A stretch of 49,923 nucleotides of DNA from Candidatus Bathyarchaeota archaeon. GTDB lineage: Archaea > Thermoproteota > Bathyarchaeia > Bathyarchaeales > Bathyarchaeaceae. Shown here one piece after another: positions 3,275 to 25,928 of this stretch. A program made the translations under genes and the position numbers. The DNA lies in NCBI GenBank assembly GCA_030615265.1, contig JAUWZP010000003.1, forward strand, positions 1-49,923. The letters run 5' to 3'. Within the stretch, counting starts at the first letter, position 1. Every line of letters starts with the position of its first letter. Under the pieces are notes generated by a model. It saw nothing but the letters and a program-made list of their open reading frames with translations. It was not told the origin of the DNA and made no database searches.

Positions 3275-4567
3275 ATGTCCACCGCATATTCTTATTCGAT
3301 GGTTAAAATGGCGAAGATGCATGAAGGAAGATTAGATGTCGATAACCGTGACGAGCACGGTTGGTTTAAGAAGGGAGCGCATTCTTACACGCCGCTTCTA
3401 CGCTGTAAAAGTGTTCAGTTGCTGTCGAAAAGCTATCCGGTGAGTAGCAGAGCTGGAAACCTTTACCAGCTTAAATGGTTCCTGGACTATAACAGTTTGA
3501 GCCCGGAAGAATTCTTATCGTTGAGCGCCCAGGAAGTTAAGAAGGTGATTATCGGGGCTTGCTTAACCAAGAATGGTGAAGGCAAAACTAGCACGCGAAG
3601 GATGTTCTATGTGGTTATGCGGCTTCTAGCGTTAAACGGTAGAGCTGTCGATTTTACCAGGCAAGAGCGCAAGACGTTTCTGAAAAGAGGGATGCGAAAG
3701 AAGATAGCGAGACAGTACATTCCAACGCAAGAAGACATCTTCAGGATGGCTGACAGTTTTCCGAATAAGGGTCCATTGCAGATGAAGAGAGGCAAAGCGA
3801 TAGTGCTTTGTTTATGGCAATCTGGAGTACGTGCAAGCTGTCTATGTTCATGGACTTGGGCTATGTTCAAAGATAAGCTGTACCCAACGGTTCAAACGCC
3901 GATACCCATTAGAGTTGTGGCTGAGAGACCGGAAGGCGTCAACGACGTTGCAGTGGACACCAAGATCTCAGCTTACGACGTGAGCTATTATTTTACTTTC
4001 GTACATGAAGAGGCAGCAAAGGTCCTCAAGAGCTATTTGGATGAGCGTATGAAACGGGGTTGGCAACCTAAAGATGAGGACCGTGTTTTCGTCACTGAAG
4101 CAATCAACAGAAGAGGAACACCGTTAAAACCAGTGATGCTTAACGAGATCGTTAAGTCTGGAGCGAAACAAATCGGCATCGATCCAGACTCAATATGGAC
4201 CCATTGCCTACGCAAAGCCTTCAGGAAAACATTGTATTCAAGCGGTGTGGACCCTGACATCGCTGAAGCATTGATGGGACACAAGTTAAACGCTTCTAGA
4301 GGTAGCTACTTCGACTATCACGACTTGGATTTCACGAAAAGAGAGTATCAGAGAGGGTTTTGGGGACGCATAAACCGGGATAGAGTGCGAGAGCTGGAAG
4401 AGAGCGTTGCAAAGGTGAAGACGTATGAGAAACGCATTGAAGAGTTAGAGCAGAAAAACCAAGAACTAAAGCAAAGGTTGAATGGCCACGTGTTGAGTAC
4501 CGATCAAATATCTGAGCTGCTCAAGCGCATAGAGAAACTGGAAAAACAAGCGCAAAAACAGATATAG
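3275..4567 (+). CDS. Tyrosine recombinase/integrase with C-terminal coiled coil (true start may be 3299 or 3308)
   Basis: Catalytic set SGVRAS (R), DTK (K), HCLRK (HxxR), LMGHK (H), SYF (Y). Confidence 0.92.
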   Translation: MSTAYSYSMVKMAKMHEGRLDVDNRDEHGWFKKGAHSYTPLLRCKSVQLLSKSYPVSSRAGNLYQLKWFLDYNSLSPEEFLSLSAQEVKKVIIGACLTKNGEGKTSTRRMFYVVMRLLALNGRAVDFTRQERKTFLKRGMRKKIARQYIPTQEDIFRMADSFPNKGPLQMKRGKAIVLCLWQSGVRASCLCSWTWAMFKDKLYPTVQTPIPIRVVAERPEGVNDVAVDTKISAYDVSYYFTFVHEEAAKVLKSYLDERMKRGWQPKDEDRVFVTEAINRRGTPLKPVMLNEIVKSGAKQIGIDPDSIWTHCLRKAFRKTLYSSGVDPDIAEALMGHKLNASRGSYFDYHDLDFTKREYQRGFWGRINRDRVRELEESVAKVKTYEKRIEELEQKNQELKQRLNGHVLSTDQISELLKRIEKLEKQAQKQI

Positions 4568-8450: not shown

Positions 8451-11333
8451 ATGATAAATATGAGCAAAATGCTCACGTTAGCGTTTATTCTTGGGATCAT
8501 TCTCCTGGGCATGTTAACGTTAGCATCTAACATTCAACAAGTTAAGGCAATCGGAACCGTTTACATAAGGGCTGACGGTTCAATAGACCCTCCAACAGCA
8601 CCCATACAACGTAACGGAGACCTTTACACACTAACTGGAAACATCACAAGCGATTCTGCGGGGATTGTGATTGAAAGAAACAACATTGTTCTTGACGGGG
8701 CAGGTTACACTGTTCAATTTTTTGGAGTTCATAGTTCATCTGATCAAGCTGGAATAATCTTGACTGACAGAAGTCAAGTAACTGTTAAGAATGTGAACAT
8801 CAAGGAATTCGTTACCGGAATGCAAGTCTTCCACTCTATAGACCTCAACATTTCTGGAAACAATTTGATAAGCAACCTCTGGGGCGTCTATCTCTGGGAT
8901 TCACATGACAGCACGATTTCCGAAAACAATCTAACAGAAAACGGGGATCATGGTATCTATCTCGATGGTTCTTCAAATAACAACATAACCAGAAATAACA
9001 TGGCGAACTCGGGTTTGAGAATTCGAATTGATTCTCCAAATAACAGAATTCTTGAAAACACTTTCATTAATGCCGGTCTATATGTATACGGCTCTCTTGA
9101 CAGCATCGTAGAAGGAAACACTGTAAATGGGAGACCTCTCGTCTACCTTGATGGTGCATCAGACCGCACCGTGGACGATGCGGGACAACTCATACTGATT
9201 GACTCTAACAATATCAAAGTAGAAAATCTTAGTATATCTAACACATCGTATGCTCTACAGCTATTGAGAACAAATAACAGCATCATAACAAACAACAACT
9301 TTGTAGGTAATGCAGGCGGCATAAGTCTGCGGGGTTCTTCCAATAACAGTATAGTGAGAAACAAGATAGTAGCAGGCACGGAGGTCGGCATTTATCTATC
9401 TTCTTTTTCCTCAAATAATAGCATAGTCGAAAATAATGTTACAGACAACCATGCAGGCGTGTGGCTCGGCGGTTCCCCAGGCAACAGCATAACAGAAAAC
9501 AACATAACAGCAAGTGGATGGAGTGGTCTCTACCTCGGCGGTTCAAACTATAACAGAGTTTTTCGAAACAACTTAGTAGACAATAACTATGGCATCCGGT
9601 TTGACTCTTCTCAAGGCAACAACGTATATGAAAACAACATAACAGCAAGCGAATATTCGGGTCTCAGCCTCAGTGGGTCTTCAGACAATAACACGGTTTC
9701 TCGAAACAGCTTAGCAGACAACAACTACGGCATCAGTTTTTCTGGCTTTTCTTCAGGCAATAACGTATTTGAGAACAACATCACACAAAACCATGAATAT
9801 GGTATTTACCTTGAACAGTCTTCAGGCAACAAATTTTATCACAACAACTTTGTAGGTAACACAAACCAAGGTTTTGCGTATGACTCAGTGAATGTATGGG
9901 ATGATGGCTATTTTTCTGGTGGAAACTACTGGAGTGATTACTCTGTTACTGATGAGAAAAGCGGTTCAACCCAAGACCAACCAGGAAGCGACGGCATAAG
10001 AGACATACCTCACAGCCTTGCAGCTGGTAATTCAGATCGTTATCCACTTGTGGACATTTACAGTATAGTTCCTAGCTATCCTATTGCAGTCTTCACCTAT
10101 TCGCCAAGCGACCCAATTAGCGGTCAAATCGTAGTTTTCAATGCATCCAACAGCACCTCGGAGAATGGCACAATAACAACCTACTATTGGAGCTTCGGCG
10201 ATGGAGCCTTCAGCGGAGGCTCAGGTACCACTCATGAATATGCGTCGTATGGAGATTACAAGATCACGCTGACAGTAGTTAGCAACAGTCGCTTGTTAAG
10301 TAACCAAACCAGATTGATATATGTGAGAGAAAGGCCAATTGCCAGCTTTCAGGTTTTTCCAGTGTTCAACCTTTCAGCAGGTCAAGCGATAACGTTTAAT
10401 GCTTCATTATCAAACCCACGCGGCGGAAATATCACAGATTACATTTGGAATTTCGGAGACGGAAACACGACGTCAACGGCAGAACCAGTTGTTACTTACA
10501 CCTATTCACAAGCAATAACTTACAATGTCACGTTGACAGTTCAAGATAGCGAAGATTTGAATTCATCATACTTTCAGATGATTAAAGTCTGGATGCCTAC
10601 ATCTATTTCGATTTCAACAAGCCCGTCGTCTACGTTTGTTGGCTTCGCAGCAGTCATCAATGGCACCCTTTACGATGTTTATGGAAACGGTTTGGAAAAC
10701 CAAACAGTAGTTCTCTACTACACTTTTCCAGGAGCAAACACTTGGGTTCCAATAACCTCCGACACAACAGACCAGCTTGGCAAATACTACGTTAACTGGA
10801 TTCCGCCTGCCACCGGCTACTTCACAGTCAAGGCAATATGGACCGGAAACGCCACACATTTTGAAGCAAACAATACCATCTCTTTAAGCATATTACCTTA
10901 TCAAAATGAGTACGTTTTCTCTGTTACATCTAACTCAACAGTCTCTACTTTGTCTTTTGATTCTGAAAGTAGAGAGCTAAACTTCGATGTGACTGGTCCT
11001 TCAGGAACCATTGGATACGTCAACGTATTTATCGCGAAAGGTCTCATTGCGGACATAGAGGACATTGAGGTAAAACTTAACGATGAGGAAGTAGATTTCG
11101 CAGTCACTTCCTTGGATGATTCATGGCTTCTTCACTTCACCTACCTACACAGCACACATGAAGTAACCATATCCCTAGGCCGCGTCTCCGCCCCGTTTAT
11201 AGAAAGCCTTCTCGGAGGGATTATAATTTTTGCAATAGTGTCTATCACAGTAATAGTCATCATTGTCCTCTTTGTCTTGAAAAGGAAACTCAAGTCGAAC
11301 CAAAAAGAGCCTGTGACAGTAGCTAGATCTTAA
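8451..11333 (+). CDS. Cell-surface protein: NosD/pectin-lyase-like beta-helix, two PKD domains, C-terminal TM anchor
   Basis: Signal peptide; many GIxLxxSxNNxIxxNxI repeats; GNYWSDY; YYWSFGDG and YIWNFGDG PKD motifs; C-terminal TM followed by a KRK tail. Confidence 0.9.
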   Translation: MINMSKMLTLAFILGIILLGMLTLASNIQQVKAIGTVYIRADGSIDPPTAPIQRNGDLYTLTGNITSDSAGIVIERNNIVLDGAGYTVQFFGVHSSSDQAGIILTDRSQVTVKNVNIKEFVTGMQVFHSIDLNISGNNLISNLWGVYLWDSHDSTISENNLTENGDHGIYLDGSSNNNITRNNMANSGLRIRIDSPNNRILENTFINAGLYVYGSLDSIVEGNTVNGRPLVYLDGASDRTVDDAGQLILIDSNNIKVENLSISNTSYALQLLRTNNSIITNNNFVGNAGGISLRGSSNNSIVRNKIVAGTEVGIYLSSFSSNNSIVENNVTDNHAGVWLGGSPGNSITENNITASGWSGLYLGGSNYNRVFRNNLVDNNYGIRFDSSQGNNVYENNITASEYSGLSLSGSSDNNTVSRNSLADNNYGISFSGFSSGNNVFENNITQNHEYGIYLEQSSGNKFYHNNFVGNTNQGFAYDSVNVWDDGYFSGGNYWSDYSVTDEKSGSTQDQPGSDGIRDIPHSLAAGNSDRYPLVDIYSIVPSYPIAVFTYSPSDPISGQIVVFNASNSTSENGTITTYYWSFGDGAFSGGSGTTHEYASYGDYKITLTVVSNSRLLSNQTRLIYVRERPIASFQVFPVFNLSAGQAITFNASLSNPRGGNITDYIWNFGDGNTTSTAEPVVTYTYSQAITYNVTLTVQDSEDLNSSYFQMIKVWMPTSISISTSPSSTFVGFAAVINGTLYDVYGNGLENQTVVLYYTFPGANTWVPITSDTTDQLGKYYVNWIPPATGYFTVKAIWTGNATHFEANNTISLSILPYQNEYVFSVTSNSTVSTLSFDSESRELNFDVTGPSGTIGYVNVFIAKGLIADIEDIEVKLNDEEVDFAVTSLDDSWLLHFTYLHSTHEVTISLGRVSAPFIESLLGGIIIFAIVSITVIVIIVLFVLKRKLKSNQKEPVTVARS

Positions 11334-12454: not shown

Positions 12455-12466
12455 GCATGCATGCAT
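12455..12466. repeat. (ATGC)n tract
   Basis: GCATGCATGCAT preceded by AAAAAGGG. Confidence 0.9.
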
Positions 12467-12536: not shown

Positions 12537-13265
12537 GTGGCTGTAAACATGAAGATTCTGAAGTTGTCAGGAACTTACCTGAAAAGAAAGGCGTACCAGC
12601 ACTTGATTTTGGGAACCTTGTGTCTATTTGTTCTTGTTGTCATATTTCTTACAACTGACCCAATTTTGCCTCTTTATATTGACCTAGGGCGGTACGACAA
12701 CACTCGTGCATTTGCAATGATAGTTCCGCTAATTGGGATGCTCATTTTCTACCGACTGCATCGTAGCTACCAGAAAGGCTTTGAAGGAGAAAAACAAGTT
12801 ACCAAAGTTCTTTCTTCAACATTGAGCGACGACTATTTTCTCATCAACGATGTTCAGCTCGTTGCGGGTAAAAAAGGCAACATCGACCATATTGTTCTGG
12901 GACCCACAGGAATATTTGTATTGGAAACCAAAAATTACCGTGGCAAGATTGTATGCTATGAAGATAGTTGGACACGTATAGGTCAGAACCCTTATAAACA
13001 AGCACGCCGCAACGCCTCGACAGTCTATAAGGTTATTAAGGCTTCTGGAATTCTCGCATCAAAACCTCCATGGATTAAAGCGGTTGCAGTTTTCGCTAAC
13101 AAAAAAGTAGAATTAGATAGGCGCAAAGCCCCTTCCAACCCTGAAGTTCTAAAGATTGATGAATTGACCAATTACATAACCCAAGAAACAAGATGTCTAT
13201 CCGCTCAAGAAATTGAGTTAATGAGCAAAGAAATTCTAAACGTGCACGCGAATGTGGGGGGTTAA
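12537..13265 (+). CDS. Membrane-anchored NERD-domain nuclease
   Basis: Two N-terminal TMs; KGFEGEKQV, NIDHIVLGPTGIFVLETKNY and NPYKQARRNA NERD motifs. Confidence 0.88.
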   Translation: MAVNMKILKLSGTYLKRKAYQHLILGTLCLFVLVVIFLTTDPILPLYIDLGRYDNTRAFAMIVPLIGMLIFYRLHRSYQKGFEGEKQVTKVLSSTLSDDYFLINDVQLVAGKKGNIDHIVLGPTGIFVLETKNYRGKIVCYEDSWTRIGQNPYKQARRNASTVYKVIKASGILASKPPWIKAVAVFANKKVELDRRKAPSNPEVLKIDELTNYITQETRCLSAQEIELMSKEILNVHANVGG

Positions 13266-13275
13266 ATCTTAATGC

Positions 13276-13297
13276 CATGCATGCATGCAGCATGTAT
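13276..13297. repeat. (ATGC)n tract
   Basis: CATGCATGCATGCAGCATGTAT between convergent genes. Confidence 0.9.
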
Positions 13298-14038: not shown

Positions 14039-14162
14039 GGTTTAAGCATTGAACCGCATATATATAGATAGTCTTGCATGCACGCGTGAGGGTGGCTTCG
14101 GTTTCTGAAATATGTCTGGAATCGTAATCATCACTATATTCTTTCGTTCCTGAATACTATTC

Positions 14163-14723
14163 ATGCGATCTATAGATATTCTGTTGGTTAATGGTGAGCC
14201 TGAGAATGAACGAGATGTAATCAGGATTGTTGAAGATGCGTCGAATTTTTTTCCGATAGAAACGTGGGGCGATGTTAAATATCTTGCAAAACTCATGTTG
14301 GAGCATGACGTTACGATAGCGACTGGTGGAGAATCTTTTGGAGCATTTCTTTTTGAAAAGTTAACTAAAAGGATCGGAAGGATAAAACGCTCCAATAAGT
14401 TGACGAACCTTCTGTTGGGAATAACACCTGATCCAATAATAGCGGTGTACTATTTCCTTGATGGAAGACGCTTCAGAAGGACGCTTCATCTTGTTCATGA
14501 TTACGTTGATGAAAGAATTGGAGTTGTCTCCCTTTTCCGGGTCAACGAAGAGTCTTCAAGCAAGGTTGTAGCCCACGGATTAGGACACAATAGAGGTCTG
14601 CGTCACCATCTGGAACCAATTGACCTTATGTACACCGAACTTCTGAGAACATCCACACTCCAGGTAGAAGGCTTCTGCAAGGTTTGTGTGCGCAAGTTGA
14701 CAGAAGATCGGAAAAACACTTAG
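14163..14723 (+). CDS. Archaemetzincin-like protein with a degenerate active site
   Basis: KVVAHGLGHNRGLRHH, then DLM (Met-turn position) and FCKVC; the Glu of HExxH is Gly. Confidence 0.65.
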   Translation: MRSIDILLVNGEPENERDVIRIVEDASNFFPIETWGDVKYLAKLMLEHDVTIATGGESFGAFLFEKLTKRIGRIKRSNKLTNLLLGITPDPIIAVYYFLDGRRFRRTLHLVHDYVDERIGVVSLFRVNEESSSKVVAHGLGHNRGLRHHLEPIDLMYTELLRTSTLQVEGFCKVCVRKLTEDRKNT

Positions 14724-14740
14724 GCAGGTTTTTGAAAGGC

Positions 14741-15157
14741 TCAATATTCTGGAGGCATACCACCCGGCATGCACGCATGCGGAGCTTCAGTTTTTCCACC
14801 AGATATTACATCGTCGATCCTCAAGATCATTGAAGCGGATTCCACAGCGGATTTTAAGGCCTGTTCCTTAACGCTCAACGGTTCGATAACCCCTCTCTTG
14901 TACATGTCAACTATGCATGCATGATTTGCAACGATATAATCTATCTTTTTGATGTCCAACTGTTTTAGGTTGTCAATCAACGCACGTGTCATAGTTGGAT
15001 CAACAGTGTCTATCAGAGCCGTCTTTTCATTTCCCTTGATTAGATAAGAGTTGTAACTTGTTCCGTCGGGGAGGGGAATAAGTTCATCGAAAAGTCGCCT
15101 GTCCCAATCAACTGCCCCAACCCAGTAGATTCCTGCTTTAATCTTTCTTGGTTTCAT
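14741..15157 (-). pseudogene. Chimeric ORF: flavodiiron protein (FprA) N-terminus fused to a thermosome C-terminus at an (ATGC)n tract
   Basis: [41 protein letters not shown]...DYIVANHA | C | [37 protein letters not shown]...MPGGMPPEY; junction ATGCATGCATG at 14913-14923. Confidence 0.9.
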
Positions 15158-15320
15158 CTTGTTCCACCATTTCAAATTGATCCTTTGTTGCTCCGCAAAT
15201 TGGACAGACCCAATCGTCTGGCAGTTCTTCAAATGACGTTCCTGGTTTCACTCCAGATTCGGAGTCACCCTCATCCGGATCATATATGTACCCGCAAACA
15301 GTACATCTCCATTTCGTCAA
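15138..15320 (-). CDS. Rubredoxin
   Basis: [15 protein letters not shown]...[11 protein letters not shown]; GGTGA before TTG 15320; upstream of fprA as commonly seen. Confidence 0.95.
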
Positions 15321-15423
15321 ATGGTCACCTTCTTCATTCTTTGGAGAGAGGACTTTTTTCATAGTTGCTCGACTTATATAGATTTCGCGAAAATGCATGC
15401 GTGTGCAATGATTCGCTCTGGCT

Positions 15424-17415: not shown

Positions 17416-17990
17416 AACGTTGGATGATCTTTTTAGGCCGTGGAGGCACAGTTCTCTTAAGTATAGGTTTCGCGTTGCTCCTTGTTTCGCTTATTCCCCC
17501 TGCCGGCATAGCCAGTAGGAGTGGACAGGGCAGATTAAGTTCTGAAAGCTTTCTAATACCTTTTGGGCGTGTTCTAACACCACAACAAGGCTTGGAAGTA
17601 ACAATCACAGCCGACGACACGATAACCGTCTACATACTCGAAGTGAGCCAAGAAATCATAGACGCCTGGATTATAGAGCAACCTCCACCAGGACCACCAA
17701 GACTGGAAGATTTTCTGGAGGAAAATCCCGACGTGATTAGTTCACAGAAAGAAGCGCGTGAAGTAAAAATCGATTATATGCCAACCAAAGTCATGGATGT
17801 CACGTTAGCCCTCTCTAATCTCAGTTCAGAACCTGTCAATTTCAGTTTTGATTACCTCATAACAAGCGTGGTAGCCCCTGGAACCAAAGTTCGAAACCTA
17901 GCCCAGTGGACAATCCCGATAGGATTCGTACTTGCCCTGCCCTGGCTTGCCCAATTGTGGAAAGAGAAAAACACACATACAGACCAGTAG
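17412..17990 (+). CDS. Membrane-anchored hypothetical protein (ABC operon partner)
   Basis: N- and C-terminal TMs; ATGA overlap with the permease. Confidence 0.75.
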   Translation: MKRWMIFLGRGGTVLLSIGFALLLVSLIPPAGIASRSGQGRLSSESFLIPFGRVLTPQQGLEVTITADDTITVYILEVSQEIIDAWIIEQPPPGPPRLEDFLEENPDVISSQKEAREVKIDYMPTKVMDVTLALSNLSSEPVNFSFDYLITSVVAPGTKVRNLAQWTIPIGFVLALPWLAQLWKEKNTHTDQ

Positions 17991-18000
17991 TGCATTCGAA

Positions 18001-18060
18001 AAAAAGGGAGTTTGCGGGAGACATCACCAGTGCACCGTAGGTTCAAATCCCACCTACCAC
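18001..18060 (+). repeat. R1 repeat copy with a tRNA T-arm-like end
   Basis: AAAAAGGGAGTT-TGCGGGAGACATCACCA-N10-GGTTCAAATCCCACC. Confidence 0.7.
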
Positions 18061-18109
18061 TATCTTTTTCTAGCTGTGATCAAATGGTACAGTCTTTGAG
18101 GAGTGACCG

Positions 18110-18619
18110 ATGGCAAAGGGGTTAATCAAAATGATATTCGCTCGACGTAGTATACGCAAATACACAGCCAAACCAGTTAGTGAGAATGACATTAAGACGA
18201 TGCTGGAAGCTGCCATGGCGGCTCCTTCATCTTCAAACCACAAGCCTTGGCACTTCGTCGTAGTGACTGACCGGCAGATACTGGACAATCTGGCTAAGGT
18301 TCATCCCCACGGAAAGTTGCTGTTTGAAGCGCCTCTCTGCATAGCGGTATGTGGCGACAAAACGATCTCGCCAAGCGCTTGGGTACAAGATTGCTCCGCA
18401 TCTACCGAGAACCTTCTCTTGGCAGCTGCTGCATTGGGTCTTGGCGCAGTCTGGCTTGGTGTTCACCCCAGAGAAGACCGCGTTGGTCCCATAAGGAAGG
18501 TGCTGAATATCCCAGAGACCATTGTTCCTCTTAACCTGATTTCTATAGGTCATCCGGCGGAAGAGAAAGAACCGCGCACCCAGTACGACGAGCTACGAGT
18601 GCATCATGAACACTGGTAA
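18110..18619 (+). CDS. Nitroreductase family protein
   Basis: RRSIRKY, APSSSNHKPWHFVVV, ENLLLAAAALGLGAVW. Confidence 0.95.
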   Translation: MAKGLIKMIFARRSIRKYTAKPVSENDIKTMLEAAMAAPSSSNHKPWHFVVVTDRQILDNLAKVHPHGKLLFEAPLCIAVCGDKTISPSAWVQDCSASTENLLLAAAALGLGAVWLGVHPREDRVGPIRKVLNIPETIVPLNLISIGHPAEEKEPRTQYDELRVHHEHW

Positions 18620-18643
18620 GATAGCCAGACATAGAGGATTTAG

Positions 18644-19501
18644 ATGTTGGATTCTGTTGCTCTGGTGAATTATGAGGGCGATGTTCGGAAGGCTCTTGAA
18701 GAGGGTGTTGAACTGATAGGTGGTTTAGGAGTCTTAAGATCACCTCTCATAGTCAAGCCTAATATCTGTACACATGTGGACAAGACAGGATTCGCCGTAA
18801 CCCATGTAGAGGTAGTTGAGGCTTTAGTAAAACTGGTTCTCAAAGAGAATGAGAACCTATCGATCAAGATAGTAGAGTCAGACAGTGAATCCAAGTTTGT
18901 TGATGAAGCTTTTGAGAAATTCGAGTACAGAGGGTTAGAGGAAAAAATGCGGAGTTTAGGCTTCGACGTATCTCTGGTCAATCTCAGTCGTTCCCCGACT
19001 GTCTCGGCTAATCTGAAAGGGCTTTACTTCAAAAATCCTAAACTTCCCGATATAATTGTTAGACCTAGATACTTCGTCTCGGTGGCTGTGGCAAAAACCC
19101 ACCCTTTAACCTTCGTAACTGGAACATTGAAGAACCTCTTCGGGCTCCTTCCAAGAAAAGACCAATCATTCTACCATGCCCATATTAATGATGTAATCGT
19201 TGACTTGAACAGGCTTGTAAGACCAGATCTCTGCATCGTCGACGCAAGAGTGGGTCTCGAAGGTTGGGAAGGTCCAGAAACAAGGCGTATTGGCGTGTTT
19301 ATCGTTGGAAGGAAATCCGCGTCCGTGGATGCTACCATGGCTAGAGTTATGGGGTTCGAACCAGAGAAGATTTGTCATCTTGCGAAAGCAGAGAAATATG
19401 AGCTCGGCACGCTGGATCCTAAGGTTTTAGGGATGAGCCTCAAGTCTGCAAAAGTGAAGTTTAGTTCACCACAAGATTTGTCCCCGAACGCCCTTCGATG
19501 A
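18644..19501 (+). CDS. DUF362 domain protein
   Basis: IVKPN, KTH...TGTLKNLFG, IVDA...GP, VDATMARVMGF. Confidence 0.85.
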   Translation: MLDSVALVNYEGDVRKALEEGVELIGGLGVLRSPLIVKPNICTHVDKTGFAVTHVEVVEALVKLVLKENENLSIKIVESDSESKFVDEAFEKFEYRGLEEKMRSLGFDVSLVNLSRSPTVSANLKGLYFKNPKLPDIIVRPRYFVSVAVAKTHPLTFVTGTLKNLFGLLPRKDQSFYHAHINDVIVDLNRLVRPDLCIVDARVGLEGWEGPETRRIGVFIVGRKSASVDATMARVMGFEPEKICHLAKAEKYELGTLDPKVLGMSLKSAKVKFSSPQDLSPNALR

Positions 19502-19538
19502 TTGCGCACTCGTTTCCCGCTTAGAAAAAATGCGGAAA

Positions 19539-19576
19539 TGCGGGAGACATCTCCAAGCATTGGTGGGTTCAAGTCC
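19539..19576 (+). repeat. R1 repeat copy with a tRNA T-loop-like end
   Basis: TGCGGGAGACATCTCCA-N10-GGTTCAAGTCC. Confidence 0.7.
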
Positions 19577-19598
19577 AGTCCAGGATACAATACATTGT

Positions 19599-19612
19599 AT
19601 GCATGCATGCAT
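19599..19612. repeat. (ATGC)n tract
   Basis: ATGCATGCATGCAT. Confidence 0.9.
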
Positions 19613-19645
19613 TTACCTCATGTTTAATTTCACAATCGAGGTCTA

Positions 19646-20857
19646 TCAAGGTTTTTGCGGGACTGGTTGATCTATTGTTAGAAAGTAGAAGAGTATCGCT
19701 GCGACGATACCCATCACTCCAAGGATACTGCCCATAACTTCGTAATTGAACAAAACAAGTGCCAATCCTCCTAGTGCTGAACCGAGGGCGTTTCCCAGAC
19801 TTAGAGCAGCCGAGTTTATAGACATCATCGTGCCACGGAATCTTGGTACCTGTTCAAGAGTTAAACTATTAGCTGCTGAAGATGCCATGCCCGAAAACCA
19901 AGTACCGAAGAAATTCAAAGCCAAAGAAAGCCATAAATTCGGCAGATAAACGAAGGAGATTATGAATATACCGGCTAAAAGAGCAGTCAAGACCGTTAAG
20001 CTCTTCCGTCCAAACTTGTTTACAAGCCGACCCGCAAACAAGCTACCCAAAGTGTAGCATAAAGCTGCTCCTATTATTATTAGGGATGCAGAATCTGTTG
20101 ATACCAGAAACTGCTGTCTGAAAAATGATACCCCATAAAGGACAATTGCAACAAACGAGGCAGTGCGAAAAACATTACCAGCCAAGCAAGCAGCCGCAGA
20201 TTTGTTTAGCATGACTCCTCTAAAGCTTCCCAGATAAGTTGTCTTGTTAACTGTCAGCTGCTCACGTGATGTGGATGGAAGGCCAATAAGAGCTAGAAGG
20301 AGACTTGCAAGTGACACAGGAATCACAAATCCTAAGAGGGTCATTCGCCAGCCCCCAATGTCTGCAATTAAAACGATTATTGGAGCTCCAACGAGATATG
20401 ATAGAGACCCCGCAGCTATAATCCATCCAACGGCATTCCCTCTCTTCTCTAAATGTAAGCGTTCCCCGACTAGGGTAATAACCATTGGGAAAACCATGGC
20501 TGTACCTACTCCACTTAGAGAATAGGATATGAGCATTAAGTTGAAGTTGGAAGCCAGAAGACAACCTAAAGCTGAAACTCCGACACATAACAGACCAATA
20601 AGCAGCAATGATTTATGTCTGAATTTAACACTCAAAATGCCCATGAACAACGCGAAGACTACTGAGATAACGGAAGAAAAAGTGTTAATCTGTCCTGCGA
20701 CGCCCACTGAAACTTCGAATGTTAGTGCTATGTCAATTAGAAGTAATGTTATCAGAACTCCCAAGGGTCCTGTCGCAAAATTAGAGATGGCCAATGCGGG
20801 AAGAAACAAGCTTCCAGGAGAGGCTCTCTCTTTGGCGATACTTGAATTGTCATTCAT
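19646..20857 (-). CDS. MFS transporter
   Basis: About 12 TMs; GRLVNKFGRK motif A. Start set to ATG 20857 because the longer track ORF runs through an (ATGC)n tract. Confidence 0.9.
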   Translation of the reverse strand: MNDNSSIAKERASPGSLFLPALAISNFATGPLGVLITLLLIDIALTFEVSVGVAGQINTFSSVISVVFALFMGILSVKFRHKSLLLIGLLCVGVSALGCLLASNFNLMLISYSLSGVGTAMVFPMVITLVGERLHLEKRGNAVGWIIAAGSLSYLVGAPIIVLIADIGGWRMTLLGFVIPVSLASLLLALIGLPSTSREQLTVNKTTYLGSFRGVMLNKSAAACLAGNVFRTASFVAIVLYGVSFFRQQFLVSTDSASLIIIGAALCYTLGSLFAGRLVNKFGRKSLTVLTALLAGIFIISFVYLPNLWLSLALNFFGTWFSGMASSAANSLTLEQVPRFRGTMMSINSAALSLGNALGSALGGLALVLFNYEVMGSILGVMGIVAAILFYFLTIDQPVPQKP

Positions 20858-20948
20858 GTTCTGCAAACTCTGTTGGGTCGGAATGGATATACGAGCGCCG
20901 ATCTTTGTGAATAGGGTTTTGATGCTTTTGTGATTTTCGTGTAGTTTG

Positions 20949-20961
20949 GCATGCATGCATG
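20949..20961. repeat. (ATGC)n tract
   Basis: GCATGCATGCATG. Confidence 0.9.
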
Positions 20962-21029
20962 GACAAGAAATAAGTAGAAACAGGAGACCCAATTATTCAC
21001 ATACCAAAGAGAAGAAAAAAGGTGGTCCC

Positions 21030-21227
21030 ATGAAACAAAGAAACCTAAGATACATAGGTATTGCCTTAATAATTGGAGGGATAATGTTGTTTTTTGATGG
21101 ATTAGGTAGTCTAATCCTCCCAGCAAACTATCATGATTTTTGGTTTGACTTAGAGAGAGTCTTTAGAACAATAGGGAGTCTTCTGTTAATTATCCTAGGA
21201 GCATATTTTGTGAAGGAGACGACATGA
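21030..21227 (+). CDS. Small two-TM membrane protein
   Basis: GGTGG before ATG 21030; two hydrophobic helices. Confidence 0.7.
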   Translation: MKQRNLRYIGIALIIGGIMLFFDGLGSLILPANYHDFWFDLERVFRTIGSLLLIILGAYFVKETT

Positions 21228-21242
21228 ACATACATGTGCAAG

Positions 21243-21286
21243 AAAAGGGAAAGTCAGACCTAGAAGTTTTCTCCTTAAATTATTAA
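21243..21286 (+). repeat. R2 repeat copy
   Basis: AAAAGGGAAAGTCA-N6-GAAGTTTTCTCCTTAAATTATTAA. Confidence 0.85.
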
Positions 21287-25875: not shown

Positions 25876-25928
25876 ATGCATGCATGGGGAGTTTTGCGGG
25901 GGATCTCTCCACTCTTGCATGCATACAT
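25876..25928. repeat. R1 copy between two (ATGC)n tracts
   Basis: ATGCATGCATG-GGGAGTTT-TGCGGGGGATCTCTCCACTC-T-TGCATGCATACAT. Confidence 0.8.

Follow-up and report, generated by a model that had tools for sequence, protein, structure and literature searches.

A truncated fprA joined in frame to a thermosome 3′ end at an (ATGC)n tract in a Bathyarchaeia strain, a probable remnant of one non-homologous join

Introduction

Bathyarchaeia are abundant, uncultured sediment archaea, and the dynamics of their genomes are little known. A metagenome-assembled genome (MAG) from this group (G000; 1.86 Mb in 119 contigs) contains an open reading frame (ORF) in which the beginning of a flavodiiron protein gene, fprA, runs into the end of a thermosome gene, with a short tract of ATGC repeats at the join. 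An earlier note on the 49,923-nt stretch of contig C44 that we analysed here (the window) had read this ORF as a direct snapshot of an (ATGC)n process that shuffles domains and captures fragments of core genes. Is the ORF a new gene, an error of assembly or the scar of a join—and, if a scar, what part did the tract play in making it? We compared the locus with 31 related genomes, with metagenome contigs and with sequencing runs that hold closely related strains.

Results

An open reading frame made of two truncated genes

The ORF (Table 1) consists of FprA residues 1–80, one Cys codon and the last 57 residues of a thermosome subunit. Pfam assigned residues 33–77 to Lactamase_B (E = 6.6e-5) and residues 77–119 to Cpn60_TCP1 (profile positions 445–487 of 490, E = 1.8e-11). 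In alignments to solved structures, residues 3–80 matched residues 3–81 of FprA 1YCF, a flavodiiron NO reductase of 398 aa, and residues 80–138 matched residues 481–545 of thermosome alpha 1A6D (545 aa). The in-frame chimera is therefore confirmed by the open frame, by Pfam and by the structure alignments. Its FprA portion had been put at about 80 aa reaching to the first His of the di-iron motif, which held (residues 1–80, at the point where orthologues read NHAEQDH); the chaperonin portion does align to thermosome subunits at its C terminus, but the approximate 55 aa assigned to it are 57 aa plus the filler Cys.

Table 1. Features at and around the fprA–thermosome junction (window coordinates)
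Feature	Position	Strand	Details and basis
Chimeric ORF	14741-15157	(-)	ATG at 15157, TGA at 14743-14741, 138 aa
Junction tract CATGCATGCAT	14913-14923		three-way comparison of window, intact fprA (L013, L002-L006) and intact thermosome (G004)
fprA remnant, codons 1-80, ending ..IVANHA	14918-15157	(-)	orthologue identity, L013, PDB 1YCF
Thermosome remnant, last 57 codons, IVDMYK...MPPEY	14744-14914	(-)	stop 14741-14743; G004, PDB 1A6D
Second tract GCATGCGTGCATGC, one transition	14767-14780		local patch replacing native Gly/Pro/Met tail codons; G004 alignment
Rubredoxin gene, 60 aa, TTG start	15138-15320	(-)	Pfam Rubredoxin, E 4e-25
Rubredoxin promoter region (predicted)	15373-15400	(-)	TATA-like TATATAAG 15373-15380; tract GCATGCAT 15393-15400 precedes
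orf186, conserved hypothetical	14163-14723	(+)	convergent with thermosome remnant; 74% aa identity to G004 counterpart
Alternating purine-pyrimidine tract GCATGCACGCGTG	14076-14088		left edge of orf186 module

Flavodiiron proteins combine a metallo-beta-lactamase-like domain, whose di-iron ligand set starts H-x-E-x-D-H, with a C-terminal flavodoxin-like FMN domain, at a full length of about 395–400 aa, and the subunits of thermosomes (group II chaperonins) have three domains, including the ATPase equatorial domain, in about 550 aa. The chimera fits neither description. Where FprA orthologues read NHAEQDH, it reads NHA and then C-IVDMYK; the FprA half ends just past the first His of the motif and keeps one di-iron ligand of an incomplete set, the flavodoxin domain is absent, and the 138 aa compare with 394–396 aa in full-length orthologues. 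The chimera shares its N-terminal 80 aa and its operon setting with the class A FprA of rubredoxin–fprA operons, but it stops after that His and is a fragment of this class, not a member. Similarly, its last 57 aa are orthologous to those of a 549-aa thermosome subunit in the same-genus genome G004 and occupy the same genomic place, whereas the approximately 490 N-terminal residues with the ATPase, intermediate and apical domains are missing, reducing the three-domain subunit to its C-terminal end. About 20% of FprA and about 10% of the thermosome subunit are left. The NCBIfam scores were 65 bits against a cut-off of 635 for the FprA family and 49 bits against a cut-off of 400 for the thermosome family.

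Judged by what it encodes, the chimera is most likely a non-functional pseudogene remnant, its formation having destroyed both parent genes. No stop codon or frameshift interrupts the 138 codons, and the fprA part differs from that of the metagenome contig L013 at 6 of 240 nt, 3 of the differences being synonymous, with no excess of change; decay of the chimera is therefore not demonstrated, and the joining event is too young for visible decay. Given an undamaged promoter, rubredoxin gene and overlapping start, the 138-aa product, which is predicted to be co-transcribed with rubredoxin, may be made. No RNA data set was listed for the stretch, and the two RNA runs of the sample or study of sequencing run X1 contained next to none of the window's words and are uninformative on transcription. 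The chimera was found in no other genome or contig among the 31 related genomes and the metagenome contigs.

The parent genes and their neighbours

Rubredoxin is followed by fprA at loci L004, L006 and L008 of relatives, as it is by the fprA remnant in the window, and in L002 and L003 the ORF that precedes fprA is longer and has a C-terminal end of the rubredoxin type. The start of the fprA remnant overlaps the 3′ end of rubredoxin, likewise in relatives. At the amino acid level, the remnant is 76–81% identical to FprA N-termini in 7 of the 31 genomes; six of the seven orthologues are 395–398 aa long, and that of G015 is a 297-aa frame on L007, cut at the contig end. The rubredoxin–fprA pair, conserved in relatives, is ancestral. 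L013, a 1,044-nt metagenome contig with 97.5% DNA identity over 14918–15403, has the same promoter and rubredoxin as the window, and its fprA continues intact. Homology to L013 stops at 15403, beyond which the upstream flank of L013 is unrelated. An in-frame ATG at 15362 lies upstream of the rubredoxin start, in a frame that is not conserved in L013 (2-nt indel at 15329). G000 also has an FprA paralogue of 399 aa on C30 (56% identity).

On the other side of the junction, G004 carries the intact 549-aa thermosome gene convergent with a homologue of orf186, and DNA homology to the window is continuous across both, beginning at 14914; the thermosome remnant is 81% identical to the G004 3′ end in DNA and about 85% in amino acids. 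Because the whole gene in G004 adjoins the same orf186 neighbour with continuous homology, the thermosome 3′ end in the window is a leftover in its ancestral place and not a captured fragment, and the earlier proposal of capture of a core-gene fragment does not stand. By tblastn, G000 has one intact thermosome gene only, on C27. Thermosome C-terminal fragments at G005:C30, G007:C93 and G007:C196 were considered as remnants and rejected, as all lie at contig ends and are cut by assembly.

orf186 itself matched no Pfam or NCBIfam family, and its nearest named relatives are from Bathyarchaeia/Bathyarchaeota. It has a paralogue on C89, where positions 3663–4326 match 14095–14761 of the window contig with 86% identity. 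At the left edge of the orf186 module, homology to a G002 module ends exactly at 14076, and homology to C89 begins at 14095. The 35 kb around the G004 thermosome gene correspond to at least 14 different G000 contigs, gene by gene. The new element at this locus is the junction of two modules. Deletion and translocation both fit and are indistinguishable, because G000 and G004 have their genes in thoroughly different orders, down to single genes.

Anatomy of the junction

On the minus strand, CATGCA (14918–14923) in the junction tract is native to fprA (codons 79–80) and AT (14913–14914) is native to the thermosome gene. Across the join the window reads AATCATGCA-TGC-ATAGTTGAC, native thermosome sequence from ATA onward. 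Intact fprA in L013 reads AATCATGCAGAACAAG at the break and continues with NHAEQDHSGTLPQ, GTTGCAAATCATGCAGAACAAGACCAT encoding NHAEQDH; CATGCA is therefore native fprA, and TGC (14915–14917, one Cys codon) alone is filler, the sole part that comes from neither parent in comparison with L013 and G004. L013 thereby supplies the intact fprA with CATGC at the break that the earlier note had asked about. Intact thermosome in G004 reads GGGAAA/ATAGTTGACATG (GGGAAA/ATAGTT, the slash marking the break), with no ATGC microhomology there; closer thermosome relatives in the sequencing runs read GGCAAAGTTGTTGAC, and against them the filler could be up to 6 nt. The 6-nt match joins fprA with the tract motif, not parent gene with parent gene.

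The description of the two genes as joined exactly at the tract is right in that the join lies inside 14913–14923, but it overstates the share of the tract that the joining process created, since fprA itself contributes 6 of the 11 bases and the thermosome gene 2. That homologous recombination cannot explain the join was borne out, the parents being unrelated. Each cut lies between two codons and the filler amounts to a single codon, so the frame stays open; the chance of an open frame at such a join is 1 in 3.

The chimera is a strain-level allele

Run X1 may be the source sample of the window, and the junction was seen in X1 only. There, an independent assembly (Logan) contains a contig of 629 letters (depth 9.4, against a neighbouring 12.1) that spans 14351–14979, reaches 56 letters past the tract on the fprA side and shows 0 differences from the window, which shows the junction to be real DNA. 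A second X1 contig departs from the window at 14918 into intact fprA (EQDHSGTLPQ; 3 differences in 62 letters, depth 13), and a third departs at 14907 into intact thermosome. Since the junction contig and the intact-gene contigs occur in the same run, the chimera is a strain-level allele beside a sister strain with both genes intact.

Intact-fprA continuations also appeared as loose ends at 14918 in X1, X2 and X4, and the intact-thermosome continuation at 14907/14911 in X1, X2 and X5. None of the pieces listed for X2, X4 and X5 bridges the junction, and the exact 24-nt junction pattern had 0 matches in metagenome_contigs. Among the matches listed, homology to the window ends at 14918–14923 in 29 of 30 metagenome relatives; in L024 it ends earlier, at 14988.

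(ATGC)n tracts in the genome and its relatives

The window has 13 copies of CATGCATG, where 0.63 would be expected, and 0 of 100 shuffles reached that count. Genome-wide there are 266 perfect (ATGC)n tracts, with 8 nt as the minimum length counted and 23 nt as the longest, and ATGC-phase 8-mers are among the 20 commonest of the genome. Most tracts (164 of 266) do not overlap any ORF of 100 aa or longer, although the space outside such ORFs makes up only 24% of the genome; of the tracts at least 10 nt long, 20 are in divergent, 28 in convergent and 55 in tandem spacers. A role as promoters only or as terminators only was rejected, given their presence in all three spacer types and the lack of conservation within the genus. 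Across the 31 related genomes, counts of GCATGCATGC were 108 in the window's genome, 1, 12, 4 and 5 in same-genus genomes, 152 in G017, 46 in G006 and 0–4 in 12 genomes of other families, whereas the reversed control gave 0–1 across the 31 genomes and 1 in the window's genome.

Tract length differs between the window and the sister contig L014 by one GCAT unit at 20948–20961, and X5 has an ATGC insertion after 15630; like microsatellites, the tracts show whole-unit length polymorphism between close strains. Alternating purine–pyrimidine runs of at least 12 nt number 495, against about 153 in a first-order simulation, and 204 of them hold an ATGC-type hexamer. The excess fits tracts that decay by transitions, and selection for alternation itself may also lie behind it.

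Searches for an agent or a known element associated with the tracts were negative within their scope. We saw no family-wide consensus in the tract flanks and no multi-copy IS-like family next to tracts in the genome, and Rfam recognized one tRNA in the window and nothing else. Outside the tracts there was no restriction-avoidance signal (observed/expected 0.87–1.00 for CATG, TGCA, GCATGC and ATGCAT). Ku (PF02735) was found in 0 of 31 genomes, as was the D12 class of methyltransferases (PF02086), the one methyltransferase class covered; Prim-Pol (PF09250) was present in 3 of 31, all tract-poor. Our literature searches, supplements aside, turned up no account of (ATGC)n tracts in archaea.

Tracts are enriched at the joints of homologous segments

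When the genome was compared with itself by BLAST (segments of 100 nt or more), 863 distinct ends emerged, which are non-independent, families and both directions being counted; 28 of them had a tract no more than 3 nt away, where 2.0 would be expected, and outside ORFs the figures were 25 of 541 against 3.4 expected. In a set of 80 metagenome loci, 5 of 18 ends were as close as this to a tract, where 0.3 would be expected, 12 of 18 lay more than 15 nt away, and 62 of the 80 loci had no tract at all. For own duplicates and metagenome loci, the enrichment of tracts at segment ends is about 7- to 14-fold over chance. At the 27 boundaries that we inspected by eye (segments of at least 80% identity), homology halts at the tract and unrelated sequence lies beyond; the tract is in both copies at 6 of them and in one copy at 21. 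Examples include a tract directly after a tRNA CCA end (C119) and tracts that begin at a stop codon (C40).

L014, a 6.3-kb sister contig that is 98.2% identical to the window over 17991–21286, has three tracts exactly at the joints of pieces homologous to C115, C86, C114 and C44. Its rubredoxin is reduced to the last few codons at the tract GCATGCATGCATG, and its fprA shows no damage as far as the contig reaches. Tracts are missing from the borders of the 3.3-kb L014 block. In L017, homology begins at window 15335, 12 nt after a tract. Within the window, the tract-rich half (6.5–26.4 kb) has same-genus matches in the form of single-gene pieces on different contigs, and the tract-free half (26.4–46.3 kb) has collinear same-genus matches of 2–5 kb. 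Together, these data associate the tracts with segment joints genome-wide, in a manner that is correlative and incomplete.

Tract units also fill small deletions. The second tract of the chimera sits within otherwise continuous homology to G004, where APHACMPGG stands in place of APPMPPGGPGG in the thermosome tail and the patch is 6 nt shorter on balance; measured against a run X2 relative, which lacks the second tract, it is 3 nt shorter. The residues HAC had been described as added in frame: the patch at the second tract is there, but it is a replacement, and the intact thermosome without HAC that the note had asked about is that of G004. The segment with a duplicate on C89 ends 6 nt away from the second tract. 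Elsewhere, comparison of C115 with C77 revealed CATGC in place of 33 nt, forming an 11-nt tract.

We also surveyed frames that run across a tract of 9 nt or more and extend for 40 codons or more to either side of it. Nineteen were open, including the chimera, and by Pfam none of the other 18 fuses two families. The notion of domain shuffling is not upheld, since neither piece of the chimera is a whole domain, both parents were destroyed and no second case was found among those 18 frames. What survives of the proposed snapshot of an (ATGC)n process is the non-homologous join at a tract and the association of tracts with segment joints genome-wide, the chimera being most likely a pseudogene snapshot of tract-associated reshuffling; capture and domain shuffling are not supported.

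Discussion

A probable mechanism and its alternatives

We consider it probable that a single illegitimate (non-homologous) join in one Bathyarchaeia strain, made by microhomology-mediated end joining (MMEJ) with templated filler, left the ORF as a real but non-functional remnant. The rubredoxin–fprA operon is cut after fprA codon 80 and a thermosome paralogue 57 codons before its stop, still beside orf186, and the two ends are joined through the TGC filler, which together with CATGCA and AT makes the 11-nt (CATG)n tract. Because (ATGC)n is self-complementary in either orientation, a broken end with a partial tract could pair with any tract or any tract-ended break; the native CATGCA of fprA would provide 6 nt of microhomology, and extension by a few bases followed by sealing would amount to MMEJ with templated filler. 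The partner may have been a tract that already bounded a truncated thermosome gene, making the event two-step, or the filler may have been made during the join itself, in one step. Such joins would normally survive between genes only. This one hit two genes and killed both, a loss that the strain would have withstood because it still has paralogues of each (FprA on C30, thermosome on C27).

The same junction could have arisen by ordinary deletion or rearrangement with no involvement of a tract process, the break falling by chance at the CATGCA of fprA and three random bases filling the gap. Eight of the tract bases are indeed native (6 from fprA and 2 from the thermosome gene), most segment ends lie away from tracts, and illegitimate joints commonly carry short filler. 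We nevertheless regard this account as unlikely: TGC extends CATGCA and meets AT in register, with a chance of about (1/4)^5, tracts are enriched at segment ends, the deletion patches in the thermosome tail and in C115 versus C77 are filled with ATGC units, and the same operon was cut at another tract in L014. A dedicated recombinase acting on the tracts, or integron-like mobile cassettes, would make the chimera an off-target event between a tract and the CATGCA look-alike in fprA. This would accommodate the gene-sized modules that tracts bound in different contexts, such as a 65-aa ORF between tracts at L014 5385–5620, 92% identical to C114 9471–9695, which is also tract-started; tracts in both copies at 6 of 27 boundaries are in keeping with it, and the patchy distribution of tracts suggests an agent of gain and loss. 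It appears improbable in view of the 21 of 27 boundaries with the tract in one copy alone, the variable tract length (8–23 nt) and non-conserved flanks, the lack of a multi-copy element abutting tracts and of any candidate enzyme in our searches, and the deletion-plus-filler patches inside continuous homology, which fit repair scars better.

Productive domain shuffling, with the chimera a new fusion protein under selection, would be compatible with 138 open codons, with the intact promoter, rubredoxin and overlapping start, which make co-transcription probable, and with the absence of visible decay relative to L013. We judge it very unlikely, as such a protein would have a single ligand for the di-iron site, would lack the flavodoxin domain and would retain no more of the chaperonin than its last helices and tail, is absent from every other genome and contig searched, and has no chimeric counterpart among the 18 other tract-spanning frames. 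An assembly or library artefact that joined two loci is scarcely plausible. A MAG of 119 contigs from a sample with at least two close strains is a setting in which such errors might be suspected, and the junction is confined to X1; however, the independent k-mer assembly of X1 crosses it without a difference and at a depth close to that of its surroundings, the filler TGC occurs in neither parent, and the shared repeat is just 11 nt long, so that no false join is possible in a 31-mer graph.

Beyond the single join, a wider reading is possible, and we offer it tentatively. (ATGC)n may be the signature of a lineage-restricted break-and-join process in some Bathyarchaeia, in which a self-complementary tetranucleotide 'adapter', usable in either orientation, is used or laid down at end joining. 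Gene-sized modules would thereby be reshuffled, inverted, duplicated and exchanged between strains, and tracts would multiply in bursts (108 and 152 copies versus 0–12 in most of the 29 other genomes). Genes would occasionally be truncated or fused, the chimera and the L014 rubredoxin being two cases caught at one operon.

Relation to known joints and repeats

An MMEJ junction has non-homologous parents, short shared bases and optional filler. The junction described here is alike in its unrelated parents, in the putative microhomology CATGCA from one of them, in the few bases from neither and in the truncation of both genes. It differs in that the filler is always the same self-complementary tetranucleotide repeat, recurring at many joints, and in its occurrence in an archaeal lineage in which Ku was found in none of 31 genomes. 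The join itself is an event of an ordinary kind, an illegitimate-recombination remnant. REP/BIME elements are imperfect palindromes of 20–40 nt with conserved sequence, accompanied by a RAYT transposase gene; the flanks of the tracts described here have no family-wide consensus.

Two other systems of short palindromic words invite comparison. HIP1 (GCGATCGC) of cyanobacteria is a fixed 8-mer that occurs more than once per gene and is tied to orphan methyltransferases; certain lineages carry it in extreme numbers while their close relatives have few copies, and its function is given there as unresolved (PMC5861425, PMC4390886). The tracts resemble it as a palindromic, strongly over-represented and lineage-patchy word, but unlike HIP1 they are tandem units of 8–23 nt, mostly intergenic (164 of 266) and located at segment joints, in genomes with no D12-class methyltransferase (0 of 31). 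Fungal mitochondria contain ultra-short recombinogenic elements, including MUSE1 (11 bp, more than 100 copies), the GC clusters of yeast and the PstI palindromes of Neurospora, and the palindromic (A)n/(T)n microsatellites of Fusarium, for which no gene shuffling was reported (PMC7218506). The tracts share with these elements a very short palindromic sequence, optional presence among close relatives, intergenic position, length change by slippage and an association with indels and rearrangements; they differ in sequence, in residing on a chromosome and not an organelle genome, and in coinciding with module joints (PMC7218506). As tandem, self-complementary and mostly intergenic repeats at the module joints of an archaeal chromosome, the tracts differ from HIP1, from the fungal mitochondrial elements and from microsatellites.

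Implications

The chimera cost the strain one FprA and one thermosome paralogue and is itself a dead by-product. Its value lies in a clean, base-resolved junction for which both parents are known, one from a 97.5% identical sister contig and the other from a same-genus genome. Read from this junction, the joining process used a 6-nt native look-alike, added one unit-completing filler and ignored homology. Taken with the genome-wide and between-strain results, it makes very short self-complementary repeats candidate joints of a modular, fast-changing part of Bathyarchaeia genomes. A causal link between tracts and joints, if there is one, would account for gene order being so scrambled within a genus and would provide a simple sequence marker for recombination joints in MAGs.

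Gene breaks, copies and tracts

L014, a metagenome contig of a sister lineage ~94–98% identical to the window, has a GCATGCATGCATG tract behind which just the final few codons of rubredoxin remain, ahead of an intact fprA (compare window 15138–15174); the truncated gene in this lineage is rubredoxin, not fprA. This truncation is a second, independent tract-located gene break in the operon that carries the fprA–thermosome chimera. The same region holds a 65-aa ORF with a tract on either side, 92% identical to a copy on contig C114 of the source genome that likewise starts at a tract. The ORF looks like a one-gene module present in two different contexts.

A paralogue of orf186, the conserved hypothetical gene convergent with the thermosome remnant, lies on contig C89 of the source genome (86% DNA identity). 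It bears the last 6–7 thermosome tail codons, reading GIPPRY-stop, indicating that the orf186 module was duplicated along with a sliver of thermosome. After these codons come, in order, a GCGCGCGCG run, a 23-nt motif (GGAGATGTCCCCCGCAAACTCCC) and a ATGCATGCATGC tract. In the related single-contig genome G018, a 5'-truncated, 159-aa copy from the same thermosome orthologue group immediately precedes a paralogous thermosome gene of full length and adjoins an SMC-like N-terminal ORF; its break is unreadable, the region being partly masked with N.

Within the tract-rich variable half of the window, tracts at 12455–12464 and 13276–13288 bound the gene for a 242-aa protein whose NCBIfam match to MADS6/BREX PglW kinases (E 2e-20) is far below the cut-off.

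Location of features in the window and related contigs
Feature	Location	Strand	Description
242-aa protein	window 12537–13265	+	similar to N-terminal region of MADS6 and BREX PglW defence kinases
tRNA-3'-half-like sequence	window 17975–18005; C10 ~8860–8890
619-nt duplicate	C44 (window contig) 18000–18618; C10 8881–9499		93.5% identity
23-nt motif, window sites	18006–18028; 25888–25910
orf186 paralogue	C89:3663–4450
Truncated thermosome copy	L096 (G018 locus):2492–2971
Rubredoxin–fprA region	L014:5385–5640
65-aa ORF	L014:5393–5608; C114:9471–9695
Tract after tRNA-like sequence	C119:2217–2228

Sequences associated with tracts and segment edges

Allowing ≤5 mismatches, the 23-nt motif has 25 sites in the source genome, and Rfam returned no match for it. 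Because a T-run usually comes 3' of the motif, it looks like a terminator hairpin; in L013, another sister-strain contig, and at the second window site, an ATGC tract directly follows instead of the T-run.

At the edge of the 619-nt duplicate that they share, the window and contig C10 both carry a stretch (..TGGTAGGTGGGATTTGAACC..) that looks like a tRNA 3' half in reverse complement. Neither ARAGORN nor Rfam called it as a tRNA, and it could be an att-type remnant. On contig C119, a tRNA-like sequence ends in CCA and a ATGCATGCATGC tract begins at the very next base; the paralogous copy of this tRNA-like sequence on C104 is without the tract and runs on into unrelated sequence.

Across the whole source genome, GGCC, GATC, CCGG and GTAC are under-represented (observed/expected 0.43, 0.67, 0.72 and 0.75, respectively), which suggests that restriction-modification pressure in this organism acts not on CATG or TGCA but on these four tetranucleotides.
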